Source of the DNA: Escherichia coli | GTDB lineage: Bacteria > Pseudomonadota > Gammaproteobacteria > Enterobacterales > Enterobacteriaceae | DNA length: 64,000 bases | Reading direction: 5' to 3' (one strand) | NCBI RefSeq assembly: GCF_044324875.1 | Contig: NZ_CP172185.1 | Made by a program: the position numbers and the translations under genes | The notes under the pieces: model-generated | Seen by the model: the letters and a program-made list of their open reading frames with translations, nothing else | What the model was told of the DNA's origin: nothing | Database searches by the model: none | Part shown: positions 14,508 through 63,692 of the stretch, one piece after another | Numbering within the stretch: position 1 is the stretch's first letter | How the letters are laid out: each line of letters opens with the position of its first letter

Positions 14508-14583
<76 letters not shown>

Positions 14584-14618
14584 TTGGGTGGTCTGTGCTT
14601 TACAGCACTTTCAAATTT

Positions 14619-14694
<76 letters not shown>

Positions 14695-14851
14695 TTAATC
14701 TTCGTCTTTCGAACCGCTACTGCCTTGGCTGCCTTCACTCACCTTAGTCACTTACTTTTGTAAGCTCCCAAGGATTCGTTCAGTTGCCGCCTTGTCGCAA
14801 TTCGAAATACTGCGATTGGGTGGTCTGTGCTTTGCAGCACTTTTCAAATTT

Positions 14852-14927
<76 letters not shown>

Positions 14928-44081: not shown

Positions 44082-44157
44082 GCCCGGATAGCTCAGTCGG
44101 TAGAGCAGGGGATTGAAAATCCCCGTGTCCTTGGTTCGATTCCGAGTCCGGGCACCA
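44082..44157 (+). tRNA. pheU: tRNA-Phe (GAA)
   Basis: Exact 76-nt GCCCGGATAGCTCAGTCGGTAGAGCAGGGGATTGAAAATCCCCGTGTCCTTGGTTCGATTCCGAGTCCGGGCACCA. Confidence 0.97.
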
Positions 44158-44354: not shown

Positions 44355-45617
44355 ATGGCACTGACTGACGCAAAAATCCGGGCTGCAAAGCACACTGACA
44401 AGGCTTATAAACTCACTGACGGGGCTGGCATGTTCCTGCTGGTACATCCTAATGGTTCCCGTTACTGGCGTCTCCGTTATCGCATTCTGGGTAAGGAGAA
44501 AACTCTGGCACTTGGTGTATACCCGGAGGTTTCTCTCTCCGAAGCTCGTACAAAACGGGATGAGGCCCGAAAACTGATTTCGGAGGGGATTGACCCTTGC
44601 GAACAGAAAAGAGCTAAAAAAGTAGTCCCTGATTTACAACTCTCTTTTGAACATATTGCACGACGCTGGCATGCCAGTAATAAACAATGGGCACAATCAC
44701 ACAGCGATAAGGTACTCAAAAGCCTCGAAACACACGTTTTCCCCTTTATCGGCAACCGGAACATCACAACACTCAATACCCCGGACCTGCTTATCCCTGT
44801 TCGTGCTGCAGAAGCTAAACAAATTTATGAAATCGCCAGTCGTCTGCAGCAAAGAATATCTGCTGTAATGCGTTATGCCGTACAGTCTGGCATCATCAGA
44901 TATAATCCTGCTCTGGATATGGCTGGCGCATTGACCTCTGTAAAACGACAGCATCGCCCCGCTCTTGATCTTTCACGTCTGCCTGAACTTCTGTCGCGTA
45001 TTAACAGTTATAAAGGTCAGCCTGTCACCCGGCTTGCTGTTATGCTGAATTTACTGGTTTTTATTCGCTCCAGTGAACTCAGATATGCCCGCTGGGCTGA
45101 AATTGATATTGACAATTCAATGTGGACTATTCCAGCCGAACGCAAACCTCTGCCAGGGGTAAAATTCTCACACCGGGGCTCCAAGATGCGAACACCACAT
45201 CTTGTGCCACTCAGCAAACAGGCTGTAGCCATACTGACAGAACTTCAGACATGGGCTGGTGAAAATGGTCTGATCTTTACGGGAGCACATGACCCGCGTA
45301 AACCAATCAGTGAAAATACCGTAAATAAGGCCCTCAGAGTGATGGGGTATGACACAACCAAGGAAGTCTGTGGCCATGGATTCCGGGCGATGGCGTGCAG
45401 TGCATTGATTGAATCAGGTTTGTGGTCCCGCGATGCTGTGGAACGTCAGATGAGCCATCAGGAGCGTAATGGTGTACGTGCTGCGTATATCCATAAAGCA
45501 GAACATCTGGAAGAACGTCGACTGATGCTACAGTGGTGGGCAGATTTTCTGGATGCGAACAGAGATAAGGGTATCAGCCCGTTTGAATATGCAAAGATTA
45601 ACAATCCATTAAAATAG
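44355..45617 (+). CDS. P4-type tyrosine integrase
   Basis: 420-aa ORF; N-terminus MALTDAKIRAAKHTDKAYKLTDGAGMFLLVHPNGSRYWRLRYR (phage-integrase arm domain); C-terminus with HGFRAMACS and RAAYIH (R..H..R..Y catalytic signature); sits about 200 bp from the tRNA. Confidence 0.9.
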   Translation: MALTDAKIRAAKHTDKAYKLTDGAGMFLLVHPNGSRYWRLRYRILGKEKTLALGVYPEVSLSEARTKRDEARKLISEGIDPCEQKRAKKVVPDLQLSFEHIARRWHASNKQWAQSHSDKVLKSLETHVFPFIGNRNITTLNTPDLLIPVRAAEAKQIYEIASRLQQRISAVMRYAVQSGIIRYNPALDMAGALTSVKRQHRPALDLSRLPELLSRINSYKGQPVTRLAVMLNLLVFIRSSELRYARWAEIDIDNSMWTIPAERKPLPGVKFSHRGSKMRTPHLVPLSKQAVAILTELQTWAGENGLIFTGAHDPRKPISENTVNKALRVMGYDTTKEVCGHGFRAMACSALIESGLWSRDAVERQMSHQERNGVRAAYIHKAEHLEERRLMLQWWADFLDANRDKGISPFEYAKINNPLK

Positions 45618-46068: not shown

Positions 46069-49000
46069 ATGGATGAAAATGCTTTAGGGTTTGCCTCATA
46101 CTGGCGCAACTCGCTTGCGGACGCTGAGTCAGGAAAGGGCAGTTTTGAACGGAAAGACGCCAAAAATTTCACTCACTGGCATGGGATAGCGGCGGGACGT
46201 CTTGACGAAGCGATTGTCAGTAAATTTTTTAAGGGAGAAAAAGACGATGTCGAAACGGTCGATGTCATCTTGCGCCCAAAAGTTTATTTCCGGTTACTGC
46301 AGCATGGTAAGGACCGTTCTGCAGGTGCGCCTGATATTGTTACCCCGATAGTGACGCCAGCCTTGCTAAGCCGTGAGGGTTTTTTATATCCGACGCCAGC
46401 GACCTCCATTCCCAGAGACCTGCTTGAACCTTTGCCAAAAGGAGCATTTTCGATTGGTGAGATTGGGCAGTATGACAAATACAAGACGACCCATACCACG
46501 TTCTCTATCAACTTTGATGACAGCGTTGATAAGACTGCCGAAACGGATGAAGAACGGGAAGAACGATATGCAGCCTTGCAGCAGGAGTGGCGTCAATATC
46601 TGGATGATTCAGAGAGGCTGCTGAAGAACGTTGCCGGCGACTGGATTAAAAATCCTGAGCAATATGAACTCGCTGAGCACGGTTATATTGTTAAAACGGC
46701 GCAATCTGGCGGTGCCAGTTTCCATATCCTTTCTCTTTATGATCACCTGCTTGTTTGCAATAAGGATGTGCCGCTCTTCAATCGATTCGCCTCGCGAGAG
46801 GTTCATGCTGCAGAGTCTTTGCTGGCCCCTGGAGCAAAATTCAGCGACAGGCTTGGACACTCCGGAGATAAGTTTCCGCTGGCAAAGGCTCAGCGCGATG
46901 CCTTAAGCCATTTTCTGGATGCTAAACATGGCGATATCCTTGCTGTTAATGGCCCTCCTGGAACCGGAAAAACCACGCTGGTGCTTTCTATCATCGCCAC
47001 GCAGTGGGCCAGAGCGGCTCTCGAAAAATCTGAGCCTCCGGTTATTATCGCGACTTCAACGAATAACCAGGCTGTAACGAACATTATTGAGGCATTCGGG
47101 AAAGACTTTTCGCAAGGTTCAGGTGCGATGGCCGGGCGATGGTTGCCAGAGCTGAAAAGCTTCGGCGCTTATTTTCCCTCAGGCAGCCGTAAAGCTGAAG
47201 CAGCCAAAAAATATCAAACTGAAGATTTCTTCAACCAGGTTGAGTCAAAAGAGTATGTAGAAGATGCACTGCTGTTTTATCTGGAAAAGGCTAAGGCAGC
47301 CTTTCCTGAAAAAGAGTGTTCATCCCCTGAAAAGGTCATTGAACTCCTGCATGGTCAGTTGGCAGCAAAATCCGAGCAACTGATAAGACTGAACGCAACA
47401 TGGCAAAAGTTAAGCCAGATTCGGGCTGCGCGTGAGCTTATTGCTAATGATATTGAGCAATATCTCAATAATTTAAATAAATTACTTTCCGGACAAGAAC
47501 AAAAAATCACTCTACTGAAGAGTGCTAAAACGGAATGGAAAAAATATCGCGCCGGTGAATCACTGATCTATTCATTATTTTCCTGGCTTCCGGCGGTTCG
47601 CAGTAAGCGACAGTACCAAATACAGCTGTTTCTCGAAGATAAATTAGGTGCGCTGATTGCAGGAAATCAATGGTCTGATCCTGAAACTATCGAACGTAAT
47701 ATTGATGGGCTGCTCAATTCCGCTGAGCGCGAGCAAACAACATACCGGCAGCAGATTGACTCCGCCCATGAAATCATTCTTAAAGAACAGCAGGCGGTTC
47801 AGGAGTGGCAGAGACTGGCTCTTGATTTAGGGTATGAGGGCGACGAGGAACTGAGCTTCTCACAGGCCGATGAACTGGCTGATACGCAGATTCGCTTCCC
47901 TGCATTTTTACTGACGACTCACTACTGGGAAGGTCGTTGGCTGATGGATATGGCCAGCATTGATGATCTGCAGGAAGAGAAGAAGAAAAAAGGCGCTAAA
48001 GGGGTAACCGCCCGTTGGCAACGTCGAATGAAACTCACTCCATGTGTGGTGATGACATGCTATATGCTGCCCGGCAATATGCAGATAAGTGAGCACAAAG
48101 GACAGCGTAAATTCGAGAAAAGTTATTTGTATGATTTTGCCGATTTACTCATTGTCGATGAAGCCGGGCAGGTGCTTCCTGAAGTGGCTGCTGCCTCGTT
48201 TGCATTAGCTAAGAAGGCATTAGTGATTGGCGATACGGAGCAGATCCCGCCAATATGGAGTATTGCTCCTGCGATTGATATCGGTAACATGCTGGCGGAA
48301 AAAATTCTGTCTGGCAGTACGCAAGAAGAGATTACCGAGAAATATACGGCAATCGCAGACCTTGGTAAAAGTGCCGCATCTGGCAGCGTTATGAAAATAG
48401 CGCAGTTTGCTTCGCGCTATCAATATGATCCCGAACTGGCTCGTGGTATGTACCTATATGAACACCGCCGGTGCTACGACAATATTATTGGATACTGTAA
48501 TACGCTCTGCTATCACGGTAAGTTGTTGCCTAAAAGAGGGCGTGAAGAGAGCAATTTAATGCCCGCAATGGGGTATCTCCATATTGATGGTAAAGGAGAG
48601 CTGGCAAGTAGTGGAAGTCGATATAATTTGCTTGAGGCTGAAACGATAGCGGTCTGGTTGGCAGAGAACCAGCAAAATATTGAAGCGCATTACGGTAAAT
48701 CGCTTCATGAAGTTGTCGGTATTGTGACGCCTTTTAGCGCTCAGGTATCCACTATCAAACAGGTGCTGGGCAAACAAGGTATCAGTACAGGCACGAATGA
48801 AAAGTCGCTCACAGTGGGCACCGTGCACTCTCTTCAGGGAGCGGAAAGAGCGATTGTGATATTCTCGCCAGTCTATTCAAAACATGAAGACGGCGGGTTT
48901 ATTGATAGCGATAACAGCATGCTGAATGTTGCAGTCTCCCGTGCGAAGGACAGTTTTCTGGTCTTCGGCGATATGGACCTGTTTGAGGTCCAGCCAGCCT

Positions 49001-49584
49001 CATCGCCACGGGGATTACTGGCAAAATACCTCTTTGAGTCAGAGAAGAATGCGCTCTCTTTTGATTATAAAGAGCGTAAGGATTTAAAAACCGCCGGGAC
49101 CAAAATCTACACACTTCATGGTGTGGAGCAACATGATAATTTCCTGAATCAGACATTTGAAAATACCAGTAAACACATCACGATAGTTTCTCCATGGCTG
49201 ACCTGGCAAAGGCTGGAGCAAACCGGTTTTCTTGATTCCATGATTGCGGCGTGTTCACGTGGAATTAACGTCACGATAGTCACTGACAGAAGCTACAACA
49301 CTGAACATAATGATTTTGAGAAGCGAAAAGAGAAGCAGCAGAACTTTAAAGCGGCGCTGGAGAAACTGAATGCGCTGGGTATTGCTACAAAGCTGGTAAA
49401 CCGTGTTCATAGCAAAATTGTTATTGGTGATGATGGTTTGCTGTGCGTGGGATCGTTCAACTGGTTTAGTGCGACACGGGAAGCGCGATATGAACGATAC
49501 GATACATCAATGGTTTATTGCGGTGATAACCTGAAGGGTGAGATTGAGGCTATTTATAATAGTCTTGAGAGGCGGCAGGTTTAG
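46069..49584 (+). CDS. Upf1-like SF1 helicase fused to a C-terminal PLD-family (single HKD) nuclease domain; candidate anti-phage defence protein with Mokosh type II-like architecture
   Basis: 1171-aa ORF. Walker [10 protein letters not shown] (aa 295-303, nt 46951-46977); Walker [10 protein letters not shown] (nt 48145-48171); helicase motifs [19 protein letters not shown] and [16 protein letters not shown] (nt 48814-48972); C-terminal HSKIVIGDD...GSFNW = H-x-K-x4-D...GSxN (nt 49408-49464). Located beside the island integrase. Confidence 0.8.
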
Positions 49585-49600
49585 AGCAGGAATGGTGAGT

Positions 49601-49637
49601 AGCCATCTTACCGATCGTTTTCGAGCGTAAGATGGCT
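49601..49637. other. 11-bp perfect inverted repeat between the convergent helicase-PLD and sulfatase-family genes
   Basis: AGCCATCTTAC ... GTAAGATGGCT with 15-nt loop; no adjacent T-run, so terminator function is uncertain. Confidence 0.35.
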
Positions 49638-49692
49638 GAATGGAATGGCTATTATTGCACAGTCCTTAATTATAACATTCATACCGACATGA

Positions 49693-51192
49693 TTATCTTC
49701 TGCCCGGAAGAATCAGAGGCTGTGGTTTCAGACTGTCTGCCGGTACATTCCTGTCTCCGTTAAAAACAATAACGGGTTCATTATCTTCGTCTGTCAGCGG
49801 ATTGAATGGCGGTATATTTTCAGTACGAATGCCGGTCAGCCACTGAAAAATACCTGCGAAATGACGGGCACTGATTTTTCTGCTGACGGACTGATGAGAC
49901 GTGATGTCACTGGCGGTAATAATCAGGGGAACGCTGTAGCCTCCTTGTATATGGCCATCATGATGAACAGGATTAGCACTGTCGCTGACCGACAGACCAT
50001 GGTCAGAAAAGTAAAGCATGGCAAAATGACGGGAGTGCCGGCGAAGGATACCATCAAGCTGACCGAGAAAGTTATCCAGTTTACTGATGCTGGCGAGGTA
50101 ACAGGCAATCTTTCGGGGATACTGCTCCAGGTAATGATTCGGCCAGGAGTTAAGTCGGTCACACGGATTCGGATGAGAGCCAATCATGTGCAGGAATATC
50201 ACCTTCGGAGAGGATTTATCCGCCAGTGCACGTTCTGTTTCCTGTAACAACAACATGTCATCCGTTTTACGGGAAGCAAAGCTGCCTTTCTTGAGGAAAA
50301 CGGTATGCTCCGCATCAGAAGCAATAACAGAGATGCGTGTATCATGCTCCCCCAGTTTTCCCTGATTGGATATCCACCATGTGCTGTATCCTGCTTTTGC
50401 TGCCAGCGCCACCACGTTGTTGCCGGAGTCAGGGTTCTGCTCATAGTCATAAATCAGTGTCCGGCTCAGGGAAGGTACGGTACTGGCTGCTGCCGATGTA
50501 TAGCCGTCAATAAATAAACCGGGAGCCGTATTCAGCCATGGTGTGGTTGGCACGGGATAGCCATATACCGACATATAATCCCTGCGCACACTCTCACCAG
50601 TAACGATAACAATCGTGTCATACAACGGTGTTCCCGGCAGGATTTTCCAGTTGTCAGCCCCGTGCTGACTCAGTTGTTTATAACGCTGCATTTCACGCAA
50701 TGTGTCAGTTGTTCCCACAACAATTCCTTTAACCATCCGCAACGGCCAGCTGTTTACAGAGCATAATACGAACAGCAGCAGTGCCAGCCAGTTACGGTGA
50801 CCGCGGTGGTGTGTCCGCCAGAAAATCACCATGAATACCAGAATCGCGGCACTGACCAGAAAATGATAAACAGGAATCATCCCGGTAAACTCTGCAGCCT
50901 CATCAGCCGTGGTCTGCAGCAACGCGACAATAAAACTGTTGTTGATTTTACCGTACGTCATACCCGCAGGCGCATACAGTGCACAACAGAACAGAAATAA
51001 CAGCGTTGTAATGGATGTGAGGGTATTTCTGTGTGCAAGGAGCAGAAGGAGAAACAGAAGCAGCACATTTCCTGTGGCATTCTTCTCAGTGTATCCGCAT
51101 GCAATTGTGGTTATCACAGAAATAACAAAAAAGAATAAAAACAATAAAATCCGGGGTGTGTCGCCCGGACAAAACAGTTTTCTGATATTCAT
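49693..51192 (-). CDS. Sulfatase-family inner-membrane protein (phosphoethanolamine-transferase-like)
   Basis: 499-aa ORF; N-terminal ~130 aa strongly hydrophobic (multiple TM helices), C-terminal domain with VTGESVRRDY and HMIGSHPNP motifs resembling EptA/OpgE/LtaS-type transferases. Confidence 0.7.
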   Translation of the reverse strand: MNIRKLFCPGDTPRILLFLFFFVISVITTIACGYTEKNATGNVLLLFLLLLLAHRNTLTSITTLLFLFCCALYAPAGMTYGKINNSFIVALLQTTADEAAEFTGMIPVYHFLVSAAILVFMVIFWRTHHRGHRNWLALLLFVLCSVNSWPLRMVKGIVVGTTDTLREMQRYKQLSQHGADNWKILPGTPLYDTIVIVTGESVRRDYMSVYGYPVPTTPWLNTAPGLFIDGYTSAAASTVPSLSRTLIYDYEQNPDSGNNVVALAAKAGYSTWWISNQGKLGEHDTRISVIASDAEHTVFLKKGSFASRKTDDMLLLQETERALADKSSPKVIFLHMIGSHPNPCDRLNSWPNHYLEQYPRKIACYLASISKLDNFLGQLDGILRRHSRHFAMLYFSDHGLSVSDSANPVHHDGHIQGGYSVPLIITASDITSHQSVSRKISARHFAGIFQWLTGIRTENIPPFNPLTDEDNEPVIVFNGDRNVPADSLKPQPLILPGRR

Positions 51193-51373
51193 CGGAGTAT
51201 ATCGACAACATTATTATGAAGAGAACAGGATAATAAAAATCAGAAATTATCTGTAAAACAGATAACAGACAACCCTGCAGCAATAGACTGCAGGGTGTTT
51301 CTGTTTAATTGCAGAAGATATACAATTATATTAATTACAGAATATTCGTGATTATCTCTCGGGAACAGTGTTG

Positions 51374-52114
51374 TCAGAAGTTATAAGTCACACCAAGCAT
51401 GATGTCATGACTTTTAACATCAACTTCTGACTTATATTTATCGCCCCACTCGTCCTTGTAACTCACACTGCTGTCACCTGCATCAAGATAGCGATAGCTG
51501 AGGTCCAGAGCGATATCCGGGGTTACGTCATAGCGGACACCCGCGCCAAGGTTCCATGCGAAGTTGTCAGCAGAGCCTGAACGTGACAACGATTCGCGAC
51601 CACTGCTTCCGTACTCATAATCCCAGGTACTGATACCGGTTGTTTTCTGGTGAATTCTGGCGTAGCCAATCCCTGCAGATATCCAAGGTGTGAATGCGCT
51701 GTCATTCCGGAAGTCATAGTACGCATTCAGCATTAGTGTGTTGACTGACACCTCATTCTTCAGGTCATCACGCCAGTAACCACCTGACCAACTGTCTTTA
51801 TCTACGTTATACTTCGAATCAGCTTTTCCACGAGCGTAAAACTCCAGTTCTGTACGAACCGGAATACTGAACTGCGGATAAAAATCATAACCAGCCGCGA
51901 TACCACCACTGAATACCGTATCATGGTCATCGCCGCCTTTATACTTTGACGTTTCTTCCTCATCTCCTGACAGGAAACGCTGGTCTGAAAGTGACACCAC
52001 AGAGGTACCGGCTTTACCGGTCAGATAAAAACCGCTTTTACCTTCCTCAGCACCTGCATTTGCTGCAAATACACAGGCTGCGGCCACCACTGAAACAGCA
52101 AAAACCTTTTTCAT
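51374..52114 (-). CDS. Outer-membrane beta-barrel protein (Opa/Ail/OmpA-like)
   Basis: 246-aa ORF with signal peptide MKKVFAVSVVAAACVFAANAGA, alternating amphipathic strands rich in Y/G/D, and C-terminal ...GVTYNF (terminal Phe typical of OM beta-barrels). Confidence 0.7.
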   Translation of the reverse strand: MKKVFAVSVVAAACVFAANAGAEEGKSGFYLTGKAGTSVVSLSDQRFLSGDEEETSKYKGGDDHDTVFSGGIAAGYDFYPQFSIPVRTELEFYARGKADSKYNVDKDSWSGGYWRDDLKNEVSVNTLMLNAYYDFRNDSAFTPWISAGIGYARIHQKTTGISTWDYEYGSSGRESLSRSGSADNFAWNLGAGVRYDVTPDIALDLSYRYLDAGDSSVSYKDEWGDKYKSEVDVKSHDIMLGVTYNF

Positions 52115-52190
52115 TTCAATTATCTCCGTTATTGCTCCGTTGCTGCAAGCAGTACTCAGTGCATTTTAAAACCCGCCATGCTATAGCCTC

Positions 52191-52235
52191 AATCGAATAA
52201 AATCGATCGAATCGATCGATGATATCGATCGTCAT
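52191..52235. repeat. ATCGA(T)-rich low-complexity tract with overlapping ATCGAT palindromes
   Basis: AATCGAATAAAATCGATCGAATCGATCGATGATATCGATCG about 80 bp upstream of the OMP start codon. Confidence 0.6.
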
Positions 52236-52601
52236 TAACCAGAAATTTTTATCGTATTCAGTCAGCACAGACACAACAAATGCATGCCATGCAGGCAGCC
52301 ATGCCCCGTCGCGACAGATGGTAGCAGTGGGCTGGCGAAGAGCAGAATTAATAAAATTTGTTTATTCTGTCAGGAGATAAGGTGTCACCTGTTCATGAAC
52401 ACAATTAAGGAAGAGACATACATGAGCTGACTGGCAGTCCAGAGTGCATGCGGTTACAAGCCGGAAAGGTGAACCGGTATAACCAGTGAGCAGAGTTTGT
52501 GAAGGGGGGATATAAAAAAGCCCACTGCATGGCTGCGGGTAAAGAGTCAGTTATTTCCGGCGTTTTTCAAGGTAGTTGTCGCCTGATGTAATAAAATTAC
52601 G

Positions 52602-52960
52602 TTATGCCGCTTCTTTTTCTGGATTCAGATAAACTGCCTGAATGAGTTCCCAGTCACGCAACTGTTTGCTCCAGCGCTCAGGATGACGCTTGCGAGCTTC
52701 GCGATAAACTTTTTTTCTGGCTTCCAGTATTTGTGCATCAATTCCGCGATGGCGTTCATCCGGAGTAACATACTTAATACCGCTGTGCTTGTGTTCCAGG
52801 TTGTACCATTACGTGAACTTGCTTAACCAACTTCTGGCTTCATCTATGGTTCGAAAACCATTCTCCGGCCACCATGAACAATACTTAATCGTCCGGAAGA
52901 GCGATTCGGAATAAAGAAGTGTTACTGGCAGTTCTTTCATCGCATCAGTGAAAACCAGCA
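52602..52960 (-). pseudogene. Transposase C-terminal remnant (DDE integrase-core type, IS3-like), interrupted by a stop codon
   Basis: Minus-strand translation ...SLFRTIKY...WPENGFRTIDEARSWLSKFT*WYNLEHKHSGIKYVTPDERHRGIDAQILEARKKVYREARKRHPERWS...; no N-terminal part present. Confidence 0.5.
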
Positions 52961-52969
52961 GGGCACTGC

Positions 52970-53391
52970 TCACCAGAGCAACACAGGAAAGTGAACCCGA
53001 ACAAAAGTTCCTGTACCATTTTCTCCCAGCAGACGTGAGGCTTGTTCCAGTGACGCTGGTATACGTCCCAGCCGGACATCAAGTGCGCCGATGGCTATTG
53101 CCTGAAATCGCATCGTACAGCAAATCACCAACAGGACACCGACAGACATTAAAGGTAACCCCCTGTAATCCAGTAGTTCCGCCAGCCAGCGGTCATTTAG
53201 GGAGTCAGAAAACCAATCGCCAGAATCGTGCCCGGAAAGGCATAACCCAGCGACGCCCCTCTCATCACACCGCGCCTGAACAGTGGCATAGCGTTGAGGA
53301 ATTCCGGGCATTCCAGACTACGAGCAGACTGACAAAAATTACGACAAAGCGTTGAAGGAAGCCAGCGCGCGGACTGACAGGACTTTACCAT
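52970..53391 (-). pseudogene. ABC-transporter permease remnant (frameshifted fragments)
   Basis: Two overlapping minus-strand ORFs with permease-type motifs (...AMPLFRRGVMRGASLGYAFPGTILAIGFL...; ...LEQASRLLGENGTGTFVRVHFPVLLW); no intact gene. Confidence 0.4.
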
Positions 53392-53440
53392 AAAAACACA
53401 GGCTAACCGCGCCTGCGTTTTTAATGACGGATAAACAGAA

Positions 53441-55420
53441 TCAGGTGCCGATTATGCCGCCGTCGGCTTTTACGATAACGACAGTTGAGGAGCGCGGACG
53501 ACCAGCCTTATCGCCGTCAGGCCAGCTTGATACTGCCGTCGGATGCTGCGGATCGCTAAGCCCTTCGCTTGGCTCGCCAGGGTGCTGGATGTTAATAAAC
53601 AGCGTCCGGTTATCCGGAGTGAACGCGATGCCGGTGATTTCGCAGCCGCGCGGGCCGGTCAGGAAGCGGCGGAACTCATTGGTACCGGGGATCGTCGCCA
53701 CCATCTGGTTGTTGCCCATGCCTTTGTAATCTTTACTATTGATGGTTGATGACGACACGTCGGTCTGGATCCATAGCACGCCGCGGTGATCGAAGCTCAG
53801 GCCATCGGCGCTGCCGAATTCCGCCCCCTTCATGCTGCCTTTGGTTTCCGGTTTGTCCGTATCGGTGCGACCGCCCATCACAAGAATATCCCAGGCAAAC
53901 TGCAGCGCGGTCGGGTCACCGTTATGCTCCAACCAGTGAATGATGTGGCCGTAAACGTTTTTGGCGCGCGGGTTGGCCGCATCCACTGGCGCTTTTCCTT
54001 CCTTACCGCGATCGCTGTTGTTGGTGAGCGTGCAGTAAACGCTGCCGGCGTGATATGGATCGACCGCAATCCACTCCGGGCGGTCCATTTTAGTGGCCCC
54101 CACGGCGTCTGCCGCCAGACGGGTTTTAATCAACAGGTCGCCCTGGTTTTCAAACCCTTTACTGGCGTCGAGCCCATTTTGTCCGAACACCAGCGGTAGC
54201 CACTCGCCTTTGCCGTCGTCGTTAAATTTCGCCACGTACAGAGTGCCTTTTTCCAGCAGGTGCATGTTGGCTTTGCGATCCTGCGGGTTGAATTTTCCTT
54301 CCGAGACAAATTTATATATGTATTCGAATTTCTGGTCATCGCCCATATAGACCACAACGCGGTTATCCGGGGCAATTGTCACCGCTGCGCCTTCGTGTTT
54401 GATGCGACCAAGCGCGGTGTGCTTGCGCGGCACTGAATGCGGATCGTATGGATCGATTTCCACCACCCAGCCGAAGCGGTTCGGCTCGTTCGGCGTGGCG
54501 TCGACGCTGAACCTTTTATCCACTTCGTTCCAGCGGTAAGAGTCGTCGCTCCCGCTGATACCGTAACGTTTTTCCAGCGGGTTCATCTCTGCTTTTTTTA
54601 CGAAAATATCGGACCAGTTCTCTTCACACGTCAGATAGGTGCCCCACGGCGTAAATCCGTTGGCACAGTTCTGCATGGTGCCGAGAATGATTTCGCCTTT
54701 CGGATCGTCAACTGTTTGCATCAGTGGGTTATGCAGCGCCGGACCGGTGATTTTCATCGGCGTGTTAACGGTGATGCGGCGTGCGAAAGATGACGGGCGC
54801 ACCACTTCCCAGCCCAGGGGCACTTTTTTTACTTCAATGACCGACACGCCCATCGCGTTCTGGCCTTTAAGAGCTTTATCGGCGCTCCAGTTGGCATCGC
54901 CATCTTTAAACAGTAGACCGTTATCGATGTATTCATGGTTTATGGCAAGCAGGCCGTGATCGGAGCTGTTCCCGCCCTGCGGCAGGCTAAACCACGCCAT
55001 GCCGTCGTGGTGCATCCCGGCCTGCGCCGCCTGTTCTTCCGTGGTGTTGCTACCGTCGGTTTTAAAAACCGGCAGATTTCCGGCAATCCCGGTGGCGTCG
55101 CCCCATTTGTAGAAGGGCTTCGCGATGTATCCTTCCGGCACGATAACGGTATCTTCCGTGGAAACCGGCAGGCTGGTGAAACCGAGCGTCGTCGCTTTGC
55201 CGAGGTTACCGCTTGCTTTGGAGACCACTTTCGCCAGCGCGTTTTCCTGTTTCAGCAGAAATGGGAACGCTGCCGCGGCACCGGCGACCGTGCCGGCCTG
55301 TAACAGACGGCGGCGTGACAAATAAACTTCCGCCACCTGCGAAAACGCGCGGTTATCGCTCGGGTTACTGATTTCTTCACTATGCTCACGTTTGAATAAA
55401 GTTTTTAACGGTCTGCCCAT
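53441..55420 (-). CDS. PhoX-family phosphatase (DUF839) with Tat-type signal peptide
   Basis: 659-aa ORF; N-terminus ...SRRRLLQAGTVAGAAAAFPFL (twin-arginine-like); body matches the beta-propeller PhoX/DUF839 pattern. Confidence 0.75.
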   Translation of the reverse strand: MGRPLKTLFKREHSEEISNPSDNRAFSQVAEVYLSRRRLLQAGTVAGAAAAFPFLLKQENALAKVVSKASGNLGKATTLGFTSLPVSTEDTVIVPEGYIAKPFYKWGDATGIAGNLPVFKTDGSNTTEEQAAQAGMHHDGMAWFSLPQGGNSSDHGLLAINHEYIDNGLLFKDGDANWSADKALKGQNAMGVSVIEVKKVPLGWEVVRPSSFARRITVNTPMKITGPALHNPLMQTVDDPKGEIILGTMQNCANGFTPWGTYLTCEENWSDIFVKKAEMNPLEKRYGISGSDDSYRWNEVDKRFSVDATPNEPNRFGWVVEIDPYDPHSVPRKHTALGRIKHEGAAVTIAPDNRVVVYMGDDQKFEYIYKFVSEGKFNPQDRKANMHLLEKGTLYVAKFNDDGKGEWLPLVFGQNGLDASKGFENQGDLLIKTRLAADAVGATKMDRPEWIAVDPYHAGSVYCTLTNNSDRGKEGKAPVDAANPRAKNVYGHIIHWLEHNGDPTALQFAWDILVMGGRTDTDKPETKGSMKGAEFGSADGLSFDHRGVLWIQTDVSSSTINSKDYKGMGNNQMVATIPGTNEFRRFLTGPRGCEITGIAFTPDNRTLFINIQHPGEPSEGLSDPQHPTAVSSWPDGDKAGRPRSSTVVIVKADGGIIGT

Positions 55421-55842
55421 TGCGGTTTCCTTTCAAAAAATCGATTTCAAGGGGAATCATTTTTATGCACGTGAGTCTACGGAAAGATTGTTACGGAAAT
55501 ATAACAATTGTCATAAAAAACCGGCGATAAAATCATCTATGGTCGGGACGCGGTTTCAGGTATGATGTGAGGCTAGAATTCTGAACGCTCTCTTTTGTTG
55601 AGCATATATGGACGTCCCGGGTGAGGCAAGTACTGGTTCGATGCGGTTTGCGACCATATATCCGGCGTCGTTAGTAGGTTCAATGACCTGCGCCATGATG
55701 TTATCCGGGCCCTGTTTCCTAATCACTACACCGGTATTTGATTACCCAGGTCAACTTCAGACTGTTACAGGGGCGGTAGCCGTTATCTCATCAGTGAATG
55801 TAAACTCAGTTAAAAATATTTTCTATAACTTACTGTTTTTCT

Positions 55843-56026
55843 TTAATTCATCACAACGGCCTTCTGCATATTAAAATCAATACTATCGCTCAAAACACGC
55901 CAGATGATTCTTGTCAGCTTATTCGCCAGCGCACCAGTGGTTTTCAGGAACCCTCGACGGGCTTCCATCCTTTGCAGACAAATACTCAGACTGTCAGTGA
56001 GCTTTTTCACACAGCGCATTACAGAC
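55843..56026 (-). pseudogene. Transposase-like C-terminal fragment (family uncertain), cut by the IS911-like end
   Basis: Short minus-strand ORF ...TGALANKLTRIIWRVLSDSIDFNMQ... abutting the IS911-like terminal repeat at 56027. Confidence 0.3.
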
Positions 56027-56440
56027 TGAAATGGCACACTGAATTTGGTCACCTGAACAGAGGTGATATGCTCACCTCAGAACAAGACTGGTGCCCTAAT
56101 GAAAAAAAGAAATTTTAGCGCAGAGTTTAAACGCTAATCCGCCCAACTGGTTGTTGACCAGAACTATACGGTGGCAGATGCCGCCAAAGCTATGGATATC
56201 GGCCTTTCCACAATGACAAGATGGGTCAAACAACTGCGTGATGAGCGTCAGGGCAAAACACTAAAAGCCTCTCCGATGACACCAGAACAAATCGAAATAC
56301 GTGAGCTGAGGAAAAAGCTACAACGCATTGAAATGGAGAATGAAATATTAAAAAGGCTACTGCACTCTTGATGTCAGCCTCCCTGAACAGTTCTCTATAA
56401 TAGGGAAACTCAGGACACGTTATCCTTTGGTCACTCTCTG
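56027..56440 (+). mobile_element. IS911-like (IS3 family) left-end fragment with inactivated orfA
   Basis: Terminal repeat TGAAATGGCACACTGAATTTGGTCACCTGAACAG at 56027; orfA from ATG 56099 reads MKKRNFSAEFKR* (in-frame TAA), then ...[29 protein letters not shown]...IEMENEILK; right boundary approximate. Confidence 0.7.
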
Positions 56441-57310
56441 TGTAGTGGATCGGTAATTCAGGACACCTCATTTTCACTGTTAATGTTAAAAAGTGAAAAT
56501 GAGGTGATGCATGATCAAAACTCGTCGGACTAAACGTACCTTTTCCCCGGAGTTCAAGCTTGAAGCTATCGAACAGGTGGTTAAATACCAGCGTGATGTC
56601 AGAGAAGTCGCGCTGGCACTCGAGCTCAACCCTGACCATTTGCGTAAATAGATACGGTTGTATAAGCAGGAACTTCAGGGTATTGAGCCCGCTGGTAATG
56701 CTATTACTCCTGAACAACGCTAAATTAAGCAGCTTAAAGCGCAGATAAAGCGCCCTGAGATGGAAAAAGAAATACTAAAGCAGGCTGCCGTGCTGATGAG
56801 CGAAATCCCCGGGGAAACTGTCGCGCTAATCACACAGCTGAAAGCAAAGTGGCCAGTGCGGGTTCTTTGTCATTTATTCGGTATTCACCGTAGCATTTAT
56901 TACGCGCAGGTGAAGCGTCCTGTTAATGTGCAAAGAATTGAATTACGAAGTCGGGTGAGGGCTGTCCATGCTCTCAGTCGTGGCGCAGTCGGTAGCCGGG
57001 CAATCAGTCAGATGTTGCGCCATAGTGGCGTTGATGCAGGTCGGTGGCTGGCACGACGACTGATGCGGGAATGCGGGCTGACAAGTCGACAGCCAGTTAA
57101 ACATCACTACCGGGTAAACGAAGACAAAAGTCCGCCATTGCCAAATTTACTGAACCGGCAATTTCACCCCGCCGCACCAAACCGCGTCTGGTGCGGCAAC
57201 ATCAGTTTTATTCGCCTGCAGGACAAATGGTGTTATCTCGCACTCGTTGTTGATTTATATTCACGGCGGATTATCGGTTCAGCCCTCTCATTAACCGCTG
57301 ATGCTGAGTT
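56441..57310 (+). mobile_element. Second IS3-family element fragment (orfA and 5' part of orfB), truncated by the IS66 insertion
   Basis: orfA from ATG 56511 (MIKTRRTKRTFSPEFKLEAIEQVVKYQRDVREVALALELNPDHLRK*), orfB-like ORF 56760-57314 (...RVWCGNISFIRLQDKWCYLALVVDLYSRRIIG...) ending at the IS66 end; left boundary approximate. Confidence 0.6.
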
Positions 57311-57347
57311 GTAAGCGTACAGCGAGGGCCGTATTGACGGGGATGTG

Positions 57348-58886
57348 TTATTCAGCTGGCAGTGCTATGCGCCACGGAAGCAGTTCGCTGACCCGGTTGA
57401 CCGGCCAGTCTGCTATGACGCCAAGCACATGGCGAAGGTAGCTTTCTGGATCCACGTCATTCAGTTTGCACGTCCCTATCAGGCTGTACAGTAGCGCTCC
57501 CCGCTCACCACCATGGCCAGAGCCGAAGAACAGGAAGTTTTTACGACCCAGACTTACCGCCCGCAGGGCATTTTCAGCGATGTTGTTGTCGATTTCCACC
57601 CAGCCATCGTTCGCATAGTACGTCAGTGCCGGCCACTGGTTAAGTGCGTACGCGAACGCCTTCGCCAACTCTGAGTGTCGCGACAGGGTCTTCATCTTTT
57701 CACGCAACCAGCTTTCCAGGGATTTCAACAGCGGTTTCGTTTTTCGCTGACGTTCAGCAAGCCGCTGCTCTGCCGGCATTCCCCTTATATCCGCCTCTAT
57801 GGCGTACAACTGACCGATCTGCTCCAGGGCTTCTTCCGTCAGTGCTGACGGGATGCGGACGTGCACATCGTGGATCTTTCGGCGGGCATGAGCCCAGCAG
57901 GCAGCTTCCGTTATCCCACCATTGCGATACAGCTCGTTGAACCCGGCGTACGCATCCGCTTGCAGCACACCGCTGAAGCAAGCAAGATGAGTCTGCGGAT
58001 GGATGCCTTTTCTGTCCGGGCTGTAAGCGAACCACACTGCAGGTGCCAACGCTGACCCGGCATTGCGGTCATCACGAACATACGCCCACAACCGCCCGGT
58101 CTTCGTCTTCTTATTACCCGGCATCAGTACCTGGACCGGGGTATCATCGGCATGGAGTTTGCCGTCAGTCATGACATAGCCATGAAGCGCCTCTTCCAGC
58201 GGAGACAGCAGCCGGCAGCATGCATCCACCCAGCCCGACAGCAGTGAACGGCTCAGCTCCACACCTTGCCGGCCGTATATTTCTGACTGGCGATACAGCG
58301 GGGTGTGCTCTGCATACTTCGAGGTCAGCACGCGGGCCAGCAGCCCCGGTCCGGCGATACCCCGCTCGATGGGCCGCGAAGGTGCAGGTGCCTGCACGAT
58401 GGCATCGCACTGAGTACAGGCATGTTTTTCCCGTACCGTCCGGATAACCCGGAAGGCGCTACGCATCAACTCCAGCTGTTCGGCGGTATCCTCGCCCAGA
58501 TAGCTCAGTGAACCGCCGCAGTTCGGGCAGCACGGCGCCGCAGGCAACAGTCGCTTTTCGTCACGGGGTAGTGATTCAGGGAACGGCTTACGGATGCGGG
58601 TCTGACGCAACGGACGCTGTACTGCCGGGTCATACACCCTACCAGTCAGCGTATCGCTCTCTTTCTGAAGCCGGTTCAGATCGGCTTCCATTTGTGCGAT
58701 ACGGCGGGAGACTTTTTCGGAACGACTGCCGAAGTTCATCCGGCGGAGTTTATCCAGCTGCGCCTGCAGATGGTCTATTTCGCGCTCCCGGTTGCTCAGC
58801 TTTTCCTGCAGGGCGTGGATCAGCGCTTCCTGTTCGGCCAGGCGCTGTTTCAGCAGGAAGATGTCGTCAGAAGAGATGTCGTTCAT
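57348..58886 (-). CDS. IS66-family transposase TnpC
   Basis: 512-aa ORF with N-terminal leucine-zipper/coiled-coil ([24 protein letters not shown]), Cys-rich zinc-finger region (CPNCGG...CTQCD) and DDE core. Confidence 0.88.
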
Positions 58887-58935
58887 AAGCCCGTATTTTA
58901 CCGGGCTTATTCTGTGACAACCAGGATAAAGAGAT

Positions 58936-59283
58936 TTACAGCATGGTCAGGGAGGTCAGCAGCCGCTTAGGCTGTCGCCAGTCGATACCTTCCAGCAGCA
59001 TCGCCAGCTGCGCCTGTGTAAGGAACACTTTGCCATCACGGGCTGACGGCCAGGCGAAGCGCCCACGCTCCAGCCGTTTGGTCAGGAGGCACAGTCCGTC
59101 ACCGGTGGACCACAGCAGTTTAACCTGACTGCCGCTGCGGCCCCGGAAAATGAAAACATGGCCGGACATGGGATCGTCTTTCAGCGCCGTCTGTACTTTC
59201 GCAGCCAGGCCGTTGAAGCCATTTCTCATATCGGTGATACCGGCAACCAGCCAAATTTTGGTCCCGGAAGGTAAAGGGATCAT
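58936..59283 (-). CDS. IS66 accessory protein TnpB (orf2)
   Basis: 115-aa [34 protein letters not shown]... Confidence 0.85.
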
Positions 59284-59681: not shown

Positions 59682-59752
59682 TACTTATTTGGTGGACACC
59701 ACTTTGTCTAATTCGTCAGATTCTGACCAGACGGTTCAGGCTGTACGCTTAC

Positions 59753-61833
59753 GCCTGACCGGTGTCTCTGGTGACATATTCCGGAGCTCCGGAGAGAGTA
59801 AAGGTAACGCGATCATCGGCAGAAGCATCTCCATACTGCAGATGCCCGTCGTTGGGGATCATGGCCAGTTTGCCGTAATAGCGATACACATTGTATTCAT
59901 CCTGTGTATAGCCAAAGAAGGACTGATTATTCAGTTGTGAACCCGACAGGCTGACAAACTCGCTGGCAAGAAGATGACTTCCCGTATTATCCAGTTTGTT
60001 CGCGTCAATCAGCAGATTATTACCGGCCGAAATTCTGGCATCCCCCCCTGTTGCACCAACATCGACGCGTGTTGTGCCAGTCAGAAATTTCCGGGTGGCT
60101 CCCTTTTCAGTCGGAACGGCCCATGCCTCAAAACCACCACCGGCAGTACCGCTCCAGGACTTCACATAATATCCCCATCCATTTTCACCTAAATCGCCCA
60201 CTCTGACTGAAACAGAATTTACACCATCAGGTACTGCGACATTCTCAACCGGAATGTATGATTTTGTCTCATTTATACCCTCCCGCTGATTCAGTAAATG
60301 TCCGGTTCTGATGGTGATATCACCGCGGGTGGTTTCGATATTCCCGGAGGTATTAATCACTTCAGCATTCGCGGCACCACTGACATCTTTCTGCATCACC
60401 AGGCTGTAACCCGCCAGCATATCGCCGTGATGGTTCCGGATGGTGCTGGCAAACAGCGAGAGGTTATTGCCCGCATACAACAGTGCGGTGTTAATGACTG
60501 CCCCGGCGACCGTTAACACCAGACTACCCGTCGTGCCGGTAAAACCGTCGAGAGTGATATCTCCCCTGCTGGTCAGGCTGACGTCCCCGCCTGCCTGCAG
60601 GCTGCCGCTGGCATTCATCGCAATCCCGCTGCCGCTCAGTGCCGTGGTGCCGTTGCCGGCGGTCAACTGGCCATTGTTGGTCAGCCTGCCTGCAGCATTC
60701 AGCGTGATACCGTTGCCCTGCAATGTGGCGCCATTGGTAATATCACCCTGGCTGCTGACGGAGAGTTGTTTATTCGCGGCGATAACGCCCTGTGCGGTCA
60801 AACCACGTGTGAGCTTCAGCGTCAGGTTACCGAGTGCAACCAGCTGGCCCGCGCCGCTGAGCGAGACCATTTCAGCAAGCATATCACCGCCGCTGAACAC
60901 CTTCCCGCCGGCGTTGTTCAGGCTGTTCCCTTTTATTGTCAGGCCCTGATTACCCAGCAGCGTGCCGCTGTTGGTGATGGTCTGCGTGTTGACGTTCAGT
61001 TGTGCAGCCTGGAACAGGCCACGGTTGGTCAGACTGTTACCTGTGAGCGTTGCCTGATTCGCCGCCATCACAGTGCCATTACCGGCAAGCTTCGCCACGT
61101 TCAGCAGCAGGTCAGTGGCCTGTAGCCAGCCACTGCCACTGTAGTCCGGCGTGGTGAACGTCAGCTCACCGCCGGAAAGAATCTTGCCACTGTTGTGGGC
61201 CTGCGTTGCCGCGCTGAGCGTGGTTTTACCGTTGCCCTGAATGGTGCCGTCATTAGTCAGCACAGGTGCAGAAAGCGCTGATACGTTCTGACTGAGAAGC
61301 ACACCGCTGGTCTGGTTGGTCAGGGCATTCAGCAATGTAAGAGTCAGCCCGCTGTCGCCCTGCACACGACCTGAGTTGGTCAGCGAACTGGCGGTGATTC
61401 GGTTATCCGCCCCCTGAAGCTGCCCACTATTGCTGATGTCTCTGGCGTTGACGTTTAATGTACCGCCTGTCAGCATTTTACCGTGCTGTTGCAGATTACC
61501 ACTGAGTGTCACATTCAGGCTGTTAACACCACTGATTTCGCCACCGTTGCTGAGCGAATCACCATTCACTTCCAGCGTCTTCGCGCTGATTAATCCCTTG
61601 TTACCCAGCACTTTCCCGGTAAGGCGGGCATCGCCCAGGGCGGTAATTTTGCTGCCGGTGGCAGCAATAACATCGCCACTCAGGGTCAGAGCCAACTCCA
61701 GCGCACTCTGAACAGCACCGCTGCTGGTCAGGCTGCTGGCATCCAGAGTAATGTTCTGCCCCTGAATCCGGCCGCTGTTGGTCACATCTCCTGCGCTCAG
61801 CGTCAGCGAGTTCTGGCTCGATCCGCGCACCAC
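59753..61833 (-). pseudogene. Internal fragment of a filamentous-haemagglutinin / CdiA-like two-partner-secretion exoprotein
   Basis: 694-aa minus-strand ORF made of degenerate repeats (...LTNSGRVQG..., ...LNNAGGKVFSGGDM..., ...GNSLTNRGLFQAAQLNVN...); no TPS secretion domain; reading frame terminates inside the IS66 terminal repeat. Confidence 0.7.
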
Positions 61834-63395: not shown

Positions 63396-63616
63396 CTGCC
63401 CGGCGGCGCTGCGCTTGCGCGGGCCTGGGAGGGGATCCCGCAGGCCTCCTCAGGAACGTAGGCCGGATAAGGCATTTATGCCGCCATCCGGCACAACCAC
63501 AGGTATGGAGCTTGAAGTGTCCTGCCCGGCGGCGCTGCGCCTGCCGGGCCTGGGGGGTATCCCGCAGGCCTCCTCAGAAACGTAGGCCGGATAAGGCATG
63601 TATGCCGCCATCCGGC
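63396..63616. repeat. Two tandem ~97-bp REP/BIME-type palindromic repeat units
   Basis: Units 63396-63492 and 63522-63616, about 90% identical, each containing TAGGCCGGATAAGGCAT(T/G)TATGCCGCCATCCGGCA. Confidence 0.8.
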
Positions 63617-63692
63617 ATAAATGGAGCGCACCAGTCGTAGCCCGGCTAAGCGTAGCGCCAGCCGGGAACGCTCCTTCGACAACGCTATCGCA

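Follow-up and report, generated by a model that had tools for sequence, protein, structure and literature searches.

The locus examined here lies in a 64,000-nucleotide stretch of Escherichia coli DNA (the window) and consists of two real E. coli pathogenicity-island genes that are already catalogued, one for a Hek/Hra adhesin and one for a YjgX/'PEAX' transferase. Very probably, the two form an island-head cassette in which a Hek/Hra adhesin and a YjgX-type enzyme of the phosphoethanolamine (PEtN) transferase family are co-inherited, each probably with its own transcription signals. The genes are as follows.

51374..52114, minus strand: hek/hra-type heat-resistant agglutinin gene (open reading frame, 246 aa), upstream gene of the pair
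49693..51192, minus strand: yjgX/'peaX'-type PEtN-transferase-family gene (open reading frame, 499 aa, inner-membrane protein), downstream gene

Both genes are intact in the window and are separated by a gap of 181 bp. The first-pass annotation had described two head-to-tail frames on the minus strand; the coordinates match, and in E. coli chromosomes with 100% identity the NCBI pipeline calls the same two CDS, as 'outer membrane protein' and 'phosphoethanolamine transferase'.

The upstream gene encodes an outer membrane protein (OMP) matching Pfam OMP_b-brl (PF13505, 7.6e-22), with a hydrophobic signal-like segment at residues 1–22 and the C-terminal end ...TYNF. The AF2 model (pLDDT 88) has eight long strands, and Foldseek matches it to NspA, OmpA-TM, Ail, and OmpX. 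The protein is thus predicted to form an eight-stranded outer-membrane barrel with long surface loops. It shares 96% amino acid identity with the OMP of the UTI89 leuX island (the Hek locus) and 63% with the genuine Tia of ETEC H10407. Similarity to Hek and Tia, the eight-stranded barrel, the signal peptide, and the C-terminal aromatic residue place it in the Hra/Tia/Hek family, an assignment based on comparison with the H10407 Tia and UTI89 Hek-locus sequences. Database labels were useless for naming, as the automatic names 'Tia', 'Hek', 'porin', and 'OmpW' are mixed across alleles. The protein had been called an 'Opa/Ail-like' barrel; the barrel holds, whereas Opa/Ail proper has to be replaced by the Hek/Hra/Tia family. 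Hek is listed for the leuX pathogenicity islands of UTI89, RS218, and 536 (review PMC7545054). Both Hek and Tia bind heparan-sulphate proteoglycans (HSPG), and Hek also acts as an autoagglutinin (PMC2553418). Relatives of the window protein are reported to show heat-resistant haemagglutination, autoaggregation, and HSPG-dependent adhesion/invasion (PMC2553418, PMC5539235). The predicted surface loops would correspond to those through which characterised members of the family agglutinate erythrocytes, autoaggregate, and adhere or invade via these proteoglycans. Given that the UTI89 Hek-locus protein is 96% identical, we infer that the window allele may be an adhesin as well.

The downstream gene encodes a protein with a Pfam Sulfatase domain (PF00884, 1.6e-36), a weak match to EptA_B_N (9.6e-5), and five hydrophobic segments within residues 1–155. 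Its AF2 model (pLDDT 90) matches EcEptC and full-length MCR-1 (9nww) and NmEptA (5fgn) in Foldseek, the best solved structure in the PDB being the periplasmic domain of E. coli EptC (1.2e-17). The GES, ST, H..GSH, and SDHG motifs align to those of EptC and MCR-1 (GET, TST, HxxGxH, and SDHG). E200, T238, H335, H340, D397, and H398 are invariant across 54 homologues, and the catalytic residues are those that we take to be equivalent to E246, T285, H395, D465, and H466 of MCR-1. A PEtN transferase is expected to have an N-terminal domain of about five transmembrane segments, a periplasmic sulfatase-fold domain, a catalytic Thr, and Glu/Asp/His metal ligands; all of these are found. The enzyme would be anchored in the inner membrane by five transmembrane helices, with the Thr nucleophile and the Glu, Asp, and His metal ligands located in a periplasmic domain of the alkaline-phosphatase/sulfatase fold. 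Most likely, it moves PEtN from phosphatidylethanolamine onto a periplasm-facing glycan, the LPS core and the osmoregulated periplasmic glucans (OPG) being the two leading candidate acceptors. A literature search found no biochemical data or experiment for any YjgX-type protein.

Compared with its K-12 paralogues, the transferase scores 237 bits with OpgE, 105 with YhbX, 94 with EptC, 55 with EptB, and 45 with EptA. OpgE is both the closest K-12 paralogue and the closest characterised relative, with 31% identity over 493 aa, membrane domain included. The profile comparison placed the protein in the PEtN-transferase superfamily but below the cut-off of every curated NCBIfam model. PRK10649, the CptA/EptC model, reaches 106.9 of the 404 bits required and the CptA domain model 82 of 900; the EptA models reach 56.7 of 561 and 38.5 of 660, EptB 49.6 of 493, and none of the MCR models exceeds 34.5 bits where about 1250 are needed. 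The NCBIfam matches included no OpgE model. CptA/EptC ranked top in NCBIfam and was rejected as the closest relative, as OpgE is far ahead in the direct paralogue comparison. Membership of EptC/CptA was rejected on the missed cut-offs, and that of EptA/MCR both on the missed cut-offs and because a published carrier strain is colistin-susceptible (PMC6408774). The original label 'EptA/OpgE-like' therefore survives in its OpgE half and not in its EptA half. Orthology with OpgE was likewise rejected, given the 31% identity and the location in a tRNA-Phe island rather than at the ompX-opgE-mntS locus. In K-12 the gene survives as the truncated pseudogene yjgX (b4575), of which the window copy is the intact form, with 91.7% nucleotide identity. 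The same gene has been published as 'PEAX' in O157:H7 NADC 6564 (PMC6408774) and as 'putative opgE' in ExPEC pap islands (PMC8946752). The K-12 yjgX mutant was discarded as a functional clue; a defensin screen reports it as a false positive (PMC4808223), and the gene in K-12 is a pseudogene.

It is possible, if rather doubtful, that the enzyme is a second OpgE, transferring PEtN onto osmoregulated periplasmic glucans so as to supplement or replace the chromosomal OpgE and being unrelated to both LPS and the adhesin. The next characterised paralogue is far behind OpgE (105 bits at most), OpgE is the OPG PEtN transferase as established by OPG mass spectrometry (PMC3818809), and the label 'putative opgE' is already in use (PMC8946752). 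However, 31% identity is well under the orthologue level and so low that substrate specificity cannot be carried over, and E. coli already has an opgE. Homologues from 10 Acinetobacter species (32–37% identity) are equally similar to the window enzyme (252 bits); they score 252–259 bits with the YjgX clade and 183–184 bits with OpgE. Their genes directly follow ilvE and have deacetylase and glycosyltransferase genes around them; in A. baumannii, the LOS outer-core locus occupies this position (PMC4172580). This contextual hint for the acceptor comes from homologues at about 33% identity. Lipid A modification of the EptA/MCR type, conferring resistance to cationic peptides or polymyxin, is the most improbable role considered. 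The superfamily, fold, and catalytic residues are common to MCR-1, EptA, and the window enzyme, and some homologues are automatically annotated 'lipid A phosphoethanolamine transferase'. The similarity to EptA and to the MCR models is nonetheless very weak (45 bits, and at most 34.5 against about 1250), and the carrier strain O157 NADC 6564 is susceptible, its colistin MIC of 0.66 versus 0.41 µg/mL not differing significantly (PMC6408774).

The genes lie near the head of an island. Strain EC21Z-147 has an identical region and was used for annotation. The features between the tRNA and the cassette are the following.

44082..44157, plus strand: tRNA-Phe (ARAGORN; EC21Z-147 annotation), at the pheU position after dsbD-dicD, integration site of the island
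44355..45617, plus strand: P4-type tyrosine integrase at the island head (NCBIfam PRK09692 domain, 4.3e-74; annotated tyrosine recombinase)
46069..49584, plus strand: MkoC, helicase-PLD protein of the Mokosh type II defence system (PADLOC MkoC, 1694 bits, residues 1–1169)

The first-pass annotation had placed the pair directly after a defence candidate, and this neighbour of 1171 aa indeed matches MkoC end to end; it is 98% identical to the UTI89 leuX copy. The slot between integrase and cassette is variable, holding MkoC here and a TPR (SisA-like) gene or nothing in other islands. The slots on both sides of the cassette vary, while both cassette genes stay. A search of the window for an att direct repeat that would delimit a mini-island beyond the OMP gene found none. 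We interpret hek-yjgX as a probable conserved cassette at the head of E. coli tRNA-linked genomic islands, here at pheU.

The defence neighbourhood would fit the idea of the first-pass annotation, which saw possible envelope-modification cargo that could alter phage receptors or serum resistance. In this reading, the pair would be phage-receptor or exclusion cargo, the enzyme altering the LPS core and/or the barrel altering the surface such that phage adsorption or recognition by conjugative pili is blocked. Besides MkoC in the window, the cassette adjoins TerB, ATPase, and DEAD-helicase genes in other islands, and a published dnd/dpt island carries it too (PMC6408774). E. coli conjugative plasmids encode a homologue with 52% identity in their transfer region, not far from a gene for an exclusion determinant. 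Yet PADLOC has no match for either the OMP or the transferase, and the search for phage-borne homologues gave no close ones, only distant arylsulfatase-like matches. Genes for pap fimbriae, ato genes, or IS genes adjoin the cassette just as often (PMC5539235). Since defence genes, too, gather close to the integrase, that position would explain the neighbourhood with no need for a shared function, and we consider an exclusion role quite improbable.

The conserved-cassette reading draws on the linkage of the two genes. Among 5426 complete E. coli genomes, the full-length transferase gene is present in 1450 and the transferase-OMP junction in 1458, these being separate counts and not a genome-by-genome overlap. 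Such numbers put the two genes themselves far beyond chance; hek and yjgX are nearly always inherited together. The pair is found at pheV, pheU, and leuX with differing flanks, and is kept in Salmonella-type and metagenome islands in which the enzyme has 57–58% and the OMP 52–53% identity. The proviso in the first-pass annotation that the two might never occur together elsewhere is thus answered by near-universal pairing in E. coli and by the diverged Salmonella-type islands. Around distant transferase homologues, none of 73 loci has such an OMP nearby (tblastn and family HMM). The tia island of ETEC H10407 carries a PEtN transferase of another family, 65% identical to YhbX. We propose that the pair is co-inherited as a unit because it is a fixed backbone module of these islands.

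Linkage of this kind could also reflect a functional partnership, in which the enzyme serves the adhesin by adding PEtN to the surrounding LPS core or to the adhesin itself, so that the barrel is exposed, folded, or active in smooth strains; dependence of the adhesin on the enzyme would then keep the genes together. Protein-modifying PEtN transferases exist, namely, Neisseria PptA acting on pilin and Campylobacter EptC acting on FlgG, and would be precedents. The nearly one-to-one numbers of full-length enzyme genes and junctions, retention of the pair through about 45% sequence divergence, and persistence of both genes between variable flanking slots are consistent with a partnership, as is the YhbX-like transferase in the H10407 tia island. 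The related adhesin PagN is masked by LPS O antigen (PMC2553418). Against this, plasmid pHek6, known here by name and not by insert content, gives agglutination in K-12, which has no functional yjgX (PMC2553418), and the carrier strain shows no significant colistin shift (PMC6408774). The hairpin and promoter-like site between the genes (below) and the 0 of 73 distant loci also argue against it, and tight linkage can result simply from neighbouring genes being inherited together. Between islands with OMPs of only 63% identity, the enzyme is 97% conserved, which indicates that it does not track the variable loops of the adhesin. Overall, we regard a partnership as unlikely.

Own transcription signals for each gene are suggested by motifs in the intergenic region and upstream of the OMP gene.

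51230..51257, minus strand: promoter-like site TTTACA-16-TATTAT, some 38 nt before the transferase ATG
51272..51296, minus strand: stable stem-loop of 10 pairs, terminator-like or mRNA 3' stabiliser, just 3' of the OMP stop
52163..52192, minus strand: promoter-like site TTGAGG-18-TAAAAT (9/12 match), upstream of the OMP gene
52202..52231, minus strand: GATC-rich palindromic motif GATCGATnnnnTCGATCGATTCGATCGA with three GATC sites, close to the OMP promoter-like site on its upstream side

The stem-loop folds at −23.7 kcal/mol (z = −5.05 versus shuffles). Four E. coli versions of the cassette retain its stem, and Salmonella-type pairs have a different hairpin in the same place. The site upstream of the transferase is the best consensus match of the region (10/12) and, though a consensus match only, is largely conserved in E. 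coli variants. In the OMP promoter-like site, the core GGTTTTAAAAT is invariant in five hek/tia loci. The terminator and promoter calls are consensus matches, and the region holds just as many promoter-like sites as expected from shuffles. For known RNAs, the intergenic region gave only sub-threshold chance matches. An operon would have both genes on one strand with a short gap free of terminators and promoters; these genes share a strand, but their 181-bp gap contains the conserved hairpin and the predicted 10/12 site. This arrangement, a terminator-like hairpin after the OMP gene followed by a promoter-like site, suggests separate or attenuated transcription, with each gene probably having its own signals. 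As the tail of the stem-loop has only a moderate T content, transcription could read through and cover both genes.

The exact pattern of the GATC motif recurs upstream of the OMP gene in seven loci, including H10407 tia and UTI89 hek. A broader conjecture would make an OpgE-family transferase and a small eight-stranded barrel a recurrent functional pair (hek-yjgX and ompX-opgE), the enzyme decorating LPS core, glucan, or barrel and the upstream GATC cluster acting as a Dam-sensitive switch. We think this improbable; if true, PEtN decoration would control adhesin exposure or activity in smooth strains or alter phage or serum recognition.

As a known gene pair, the cassette is of modest interest. 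Hek/Hra is an ExPEC virulence marker in routine typing, so finding it again adds nothing. More interest attaches to the enzyme: about one-quarter of complete E. coli genomes have this intact PEtN-transferase paralogue with its full catalytic set, encoded nearly always beside the adhesin gene. Were it to modify the LPS core or periplasmic glucans, many pathogenic lineages could be affected in surface charge, in how far the adhesin is exposed, and in sensitivity to phages or serum. An enzyme active in this way could also confound GWAS signals now credited to neighbouring pap genes.

One of the closest known systems is the YjgX/PEAX/'putative opgE' group, whose members have 91–100% nucleotide identity to the window gene and belong to the same gene family. 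Their loci show the same pairing with an adhesin gene beside an integrase (PMC6408774, PMC8946752, PMC6174562). K-12 differs in that yjgX is truncated and the OMP gene is lost. OpgE (YbiP) resembles the window enzyme over its full length, in both the membrane and the catalytic domains. K-12 opgE also adjoins the gene of a small eight-stranded OMP, ompX, as the window gene adjoins hek, but ompX and opgE face each other, in contrast to the tandem hek and yjgX, and opgE has the core context dps-rhtA-ompX-opgE-mntS whereas the window gene is island-borne. EptC/CptA, EptA/MCR, and EptB have the fold and catalytic residues in common with the window enzyme, which at 499 aa is shorter than the LPS PEtN transferases (547–577 aa). 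The OMP shares its length class and predicted long-looped eight-stranded barrel with Hek, Hra1, Hes, Tia, and Hra2 (PagN in Salmonella), and, as at the Hek and Tia loci, its gene lies in an island after a tRNA-linked integrase. Compared with UTI89 Hek, it has ten substitutions, several of them in the signal peptide, and the window copy, located at pheU, has IS and pseudogene debris after it instead of a pap operon.

The adjacent transferase and outer-membrane protein genes singled out in the first-pass annotation are two intact ORFs on the minus strand, exactly where it had placed them. The gene order of the identical region in EC21Z-147 (dsbD, dicD, tRNA-Phe, tyrosine integrase, a 1171-aa 'AAA domain' protein, phosphoethanolamine transferase, outer membrane protein, IS and pseudogene debris, PhoX gene) and the tRNA-Phe called by ARAGORN show that the pair heads an island integrated at pheU. 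The window is E. coli chromosome, and many complete genomes of the species match positions 49500-52400 with 100% identity. The G+C content is 0.48 in the pair/island stretch and 0.52 in the remaining window.

14508-14927, minus strand: three tRNA-Gly(GCC) genes in tandem, core-chromosome part of the window
44082-44157: tRNA-Phe (ARAGORN)
46069-49584, plus strand: MkoC (Mokosh type II), helicase-PLD, 1171 aa, full-length
49693-51192, minus strand: enzyme gene, intact ORF, 499 aa, downstream member of the pair, 181 bp from the OMP gene
51374-52114, minus strand: OMP gene, intact ORF, 246 aa, upstream member of the pair
Within 52600-59000: IS3-family transposase fragment
Within 52600-59000: iron ABC permease fragment
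Within 52600-59000: further IS3 fragments
53441-55420, minus strand: intact PhoX-family gene, 659 aa
57348-58886: IS66/ISEc8 element
59749-61833, minus strand: 694-aa ORF; the stretch is G+C-rich (0.56-0.63) and has short internal repeats
63396-63620: REP-like element of about 78 nt, present twice in tandem

Along its whole length the 1171-aa neighbour fits PADLOC's MkoC profile (1694 bits), so its earlier label as a defence candidate was right. It shares 98% identity with the copy heading the UTI89 leuX island and occupies a variable slot with the integrase on one side and the cassette on the other. Downstream of the cassette, 52600-59000 is a decayed part of the island.

In the enzyme Pfam detects Sulfatase (1.6e-36) and, weakly, EptA_B_N. 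Its NCBIfam scores for phosphoethanolamine (PEtN) transferase models all fall far below the curated cut-offs (CptA 106.9 vs 404, EptA 56.7 vs 561, EptB 49.6 vs 493). The top rank of CptA is an artefact of no OpgE model being returned. Among the K-12 paralogues, OpgE scores 237 bits (31% identity over 493 residues), followed by YhbX (105), EptC (94), EptB (55) and EptA (45); the closest characterised relative is thus OpgE, which transfers PEtN to osmoregulated periplasmic glucans (PMC3818809), and the 'OpgE-like' label holds. The nearest solved structure by sequence is the periplasmic domain of E. coli EptC (1.2e-17). The motifs GES, ST, H..GSH and SDHG line up with EptC and MCR-1; in a 54-sequence alignment E200, T238, D312, H335, H340, D397 and H398 are invariant and H411 nearly so. 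Hydropathy gives five membrane segments, all within residues 1-155. The AlphaFold model (pLDDT 90) matches EcEptC (9e-19) and, over the full length, MCR-1 (9nww) and NmEptA (5fgn). The K-12 pseudogene yjgX, truncated at leuX with IS2 and intB adjoining, shares 91.7% nucleotide identity with the enzyme gene, which is its intact form.

The chemistry is likely to be PEtN transfer to a periplasm-facing glycan. Two indirect lines differ in direction on the acceptor. If the enzyme resembles OpgE, its closest characterised relative, the acceptor would be periplasmic glucans, on which OpgE acts. The other line points to an LPS/LOS core-type glycan: homologues of 32-37% identity in ten Acinetobacter species (loci L028-L038, L059 and L060) lie directly after glnE-ilvE, beside polysaccharide-deacetylase, GT4 and GT2 genes, and score better with the YjgX clade (252-259 bits) than with OpgE (183-184). 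In A. baumannii this position is the lipooligosaccharide outer-core locus, although the described OC loci list no such homologue (PMC4172580). The substrate of this very widespread, catalytically intact OpgE paralogue, whose gene is nearly always found beside a Hek/Tia-family adhesin gene, is the one point of mild interest.

The OMP matches OMP_b-brl (7.6e-22) and, more weakly, the OmpA-membrane and Opacity families. Its N-terminus is hydrophobic and its last residues are ...TYNF. The predicted barrel is seen in the AlphaFold model as eight long strands (pLDDT 88, built on 43 homologues), which match the small barrels NspA, OmpA-TM, Ail and OmpX. Automatic database names for the family conflict ('Tia', 'Hek', 'porin', 'OmpW'), and for this reason reference loci were fetched. 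The product of the genuine tia of ETEC H10407 is of the same family but only 63% identical; closer (96%) is the OMP heading the leuX island of UTI89. A review (PMC7545054) names Hek among the cargo of this island, and likewise for the leuX PAIs in RS218 and 536. By homology, the OMP is assigned as a Hek/Hra-type heat-resistant agglutinin. This family, with four loops and eight membrane strands, mediates haemagglutination, autoaggregation and heparan-sulphate-proteoglycan-dependent adhesion and invasion (PMC2553418, PMC5539235). Across E. coli the OMP alleles form a near-continuum from 52 to 99% identity.

Of 5426 complete E. coli genomes, 1450 hold the enzyme gene at full length (at least 80% coverage) and 1458 cover at least 80% of a 581-bp junction probe (enzyme 5' end, intergenic region, OMP 3' end). 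Compared as totals over all genomes, these near-equal figures suggest that an intact enzyme gene is hardly ever found without its OMP neighbour. In about 1460 other genomes only the truncated K-12-type remnant of yjgX is present. The pair occurs at pheV, pheU and leuX with differing neighbours: MkoC, a SisA-like TPR gene or nothing on the integrase side, and pap operons, TerB/ATPase/DEAD-helicase genes or IS debris on the other. Between the window and the ExPEC XM island the enzymes are 97% identical and the OMPs 63% (Hek-type vs Tia-type); OMP alleles appear to be exchanged inside a conserved frame. Diverged pairs on one Salmonella and two metagenome contigs (enzyme 57-58%, OMP 52-53% identical) keep the enzyme after the OMP in unchanged orientation with a gap of about 210 bp. 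The association ends beyond the E. coli/Salmonella-type clade. No such OMP lies near a 52%-identical homologue in an E. coli conjugative plasmid transfer region, near homologues of 36-50% identity in Erwinia, Enterobacter, Pantoea and Aquitalea, or at any of 73 loci of 24-40% identity found by scanning 100,044 species genomes (tblastn and family HMM).

The plasmid homologue (511 aa; L005:5001-6536 on an E. coli plasmid contig, also the plasmid matches H121 and H122) is flanked by nuc/DUF2569 genes on one side and hok-like and exclusion-determinant genes on the other. It recurs at 90% identity or more in about 110 plasmid records and might alter an LPS receptor.

Consensus-level terminator and promoter signals lie between the two genes and upstream of the OMP gene.

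51257-51230, minus strand: promoter-like TTTACA-16-TATTAT, after the hairpin and about 38 nt upstream of the enzyme ATG
51296-51272, minus strand: hairpin after the OMP stop codon, 25 bases, perfect stem, -23.7 kcal/mol, z = -5
52202-52231, minus strand: GATC-rich palindrome GATCGATnnnnTCGATCGATTCGATCGA, three Dam (GATC) sites in 28 bp
L003:10703-10730, L015:47369-47396, L017:7471-7498 and L019:8850-8877 (comparison loci): further copies of the palindrome

The intergenic hairpin is kept in four E. coli versions of the cassette, and Salmonella-type pairs have a different hairpin at the same position. These signals suggest a terminator or attenuator belonging to the OMP gene and a separate promoter for the enzyme, with read-through possible. 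Upstream of the OMP gene is a conserved promoter-like site containing TAAAAT, with the palindrome just upstream of it. The palindrome is conserved at hek-type and tia loci, including H10407 tia and UTI89 hek, and may serve regulation or phase variation in a methylation-sensitive way; a limited literature search found no report of this. In UTI89-type islands (L019:8339-8707, L016:7629-7997) a hypothetical 122-aa ORF separates the GATC motif from hek. The window lacks this ORF, which is why homology breaks off about 20 bp ahead of the OMP start codon.

A dedicated enzyme-adhesin partnership would account for the near-perfect linkage and for retention of the pair through about 45% divergence, and the related adhesin PagN is masked by O antigen (PMC2553418). 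We nevertheless consider it improbable. Neighbours in a backbone module co-inherit by default, the two genes likely have separate transcription signals, and the enzyme does not co-vary with the adhesin loops. Moreover, Hek encoded on plasmid pHek6, whatever else the insert may carry, confers agglutination on E. coli K-12 (PMC2553418), which lacks a functional yjgX. The family calls of the first-pass annotation were roughly right, while its proposed role in phage-receptor change and serum resistance is unsupported.

The hek-yjgX pair is already known as a pathogenicity-island gene pair. The enzyme gene appears as 'PEAX', with an adhesin gene adjoining, on a 39-kb element of O157:H7 NADC 6564, where the change in colistin MIC was not significant (PMC6408774); as 'putative opgE' in a GWAS of bloodstream infection, where it lies close to pap and integrase genes (PMC8946752); and as 'YjgX or YhbX' at every analysed pheU, pheV and selC site in LEE-negative STEC (PMC6174562). 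In the LAA island it is flanked by sisA and hes, and all were deleted together in a 2026 study (PMC13340028). The prototype tia island of ETEC H10407 at selC (L015:40080-47279) runs integrase, IS3, SisA-like TPR, YhbX-like PEtN-transferase, leoABC, tia. Its transferase (28% identical to the enzyme, 65% to YhbX) comes from another family; it takes the corresponding position, with leoABC between it and tia. In the K-12 core genome (NC_000913.3 850450-852597, L093) opgE directly adjoins ompX, which encodes a small 8-stranded barrel; this neighbourhood parallels the hek-yjgX pairing, although ompX and opgE are convergent, and the parallel may be coincidence or ordinary synteny.
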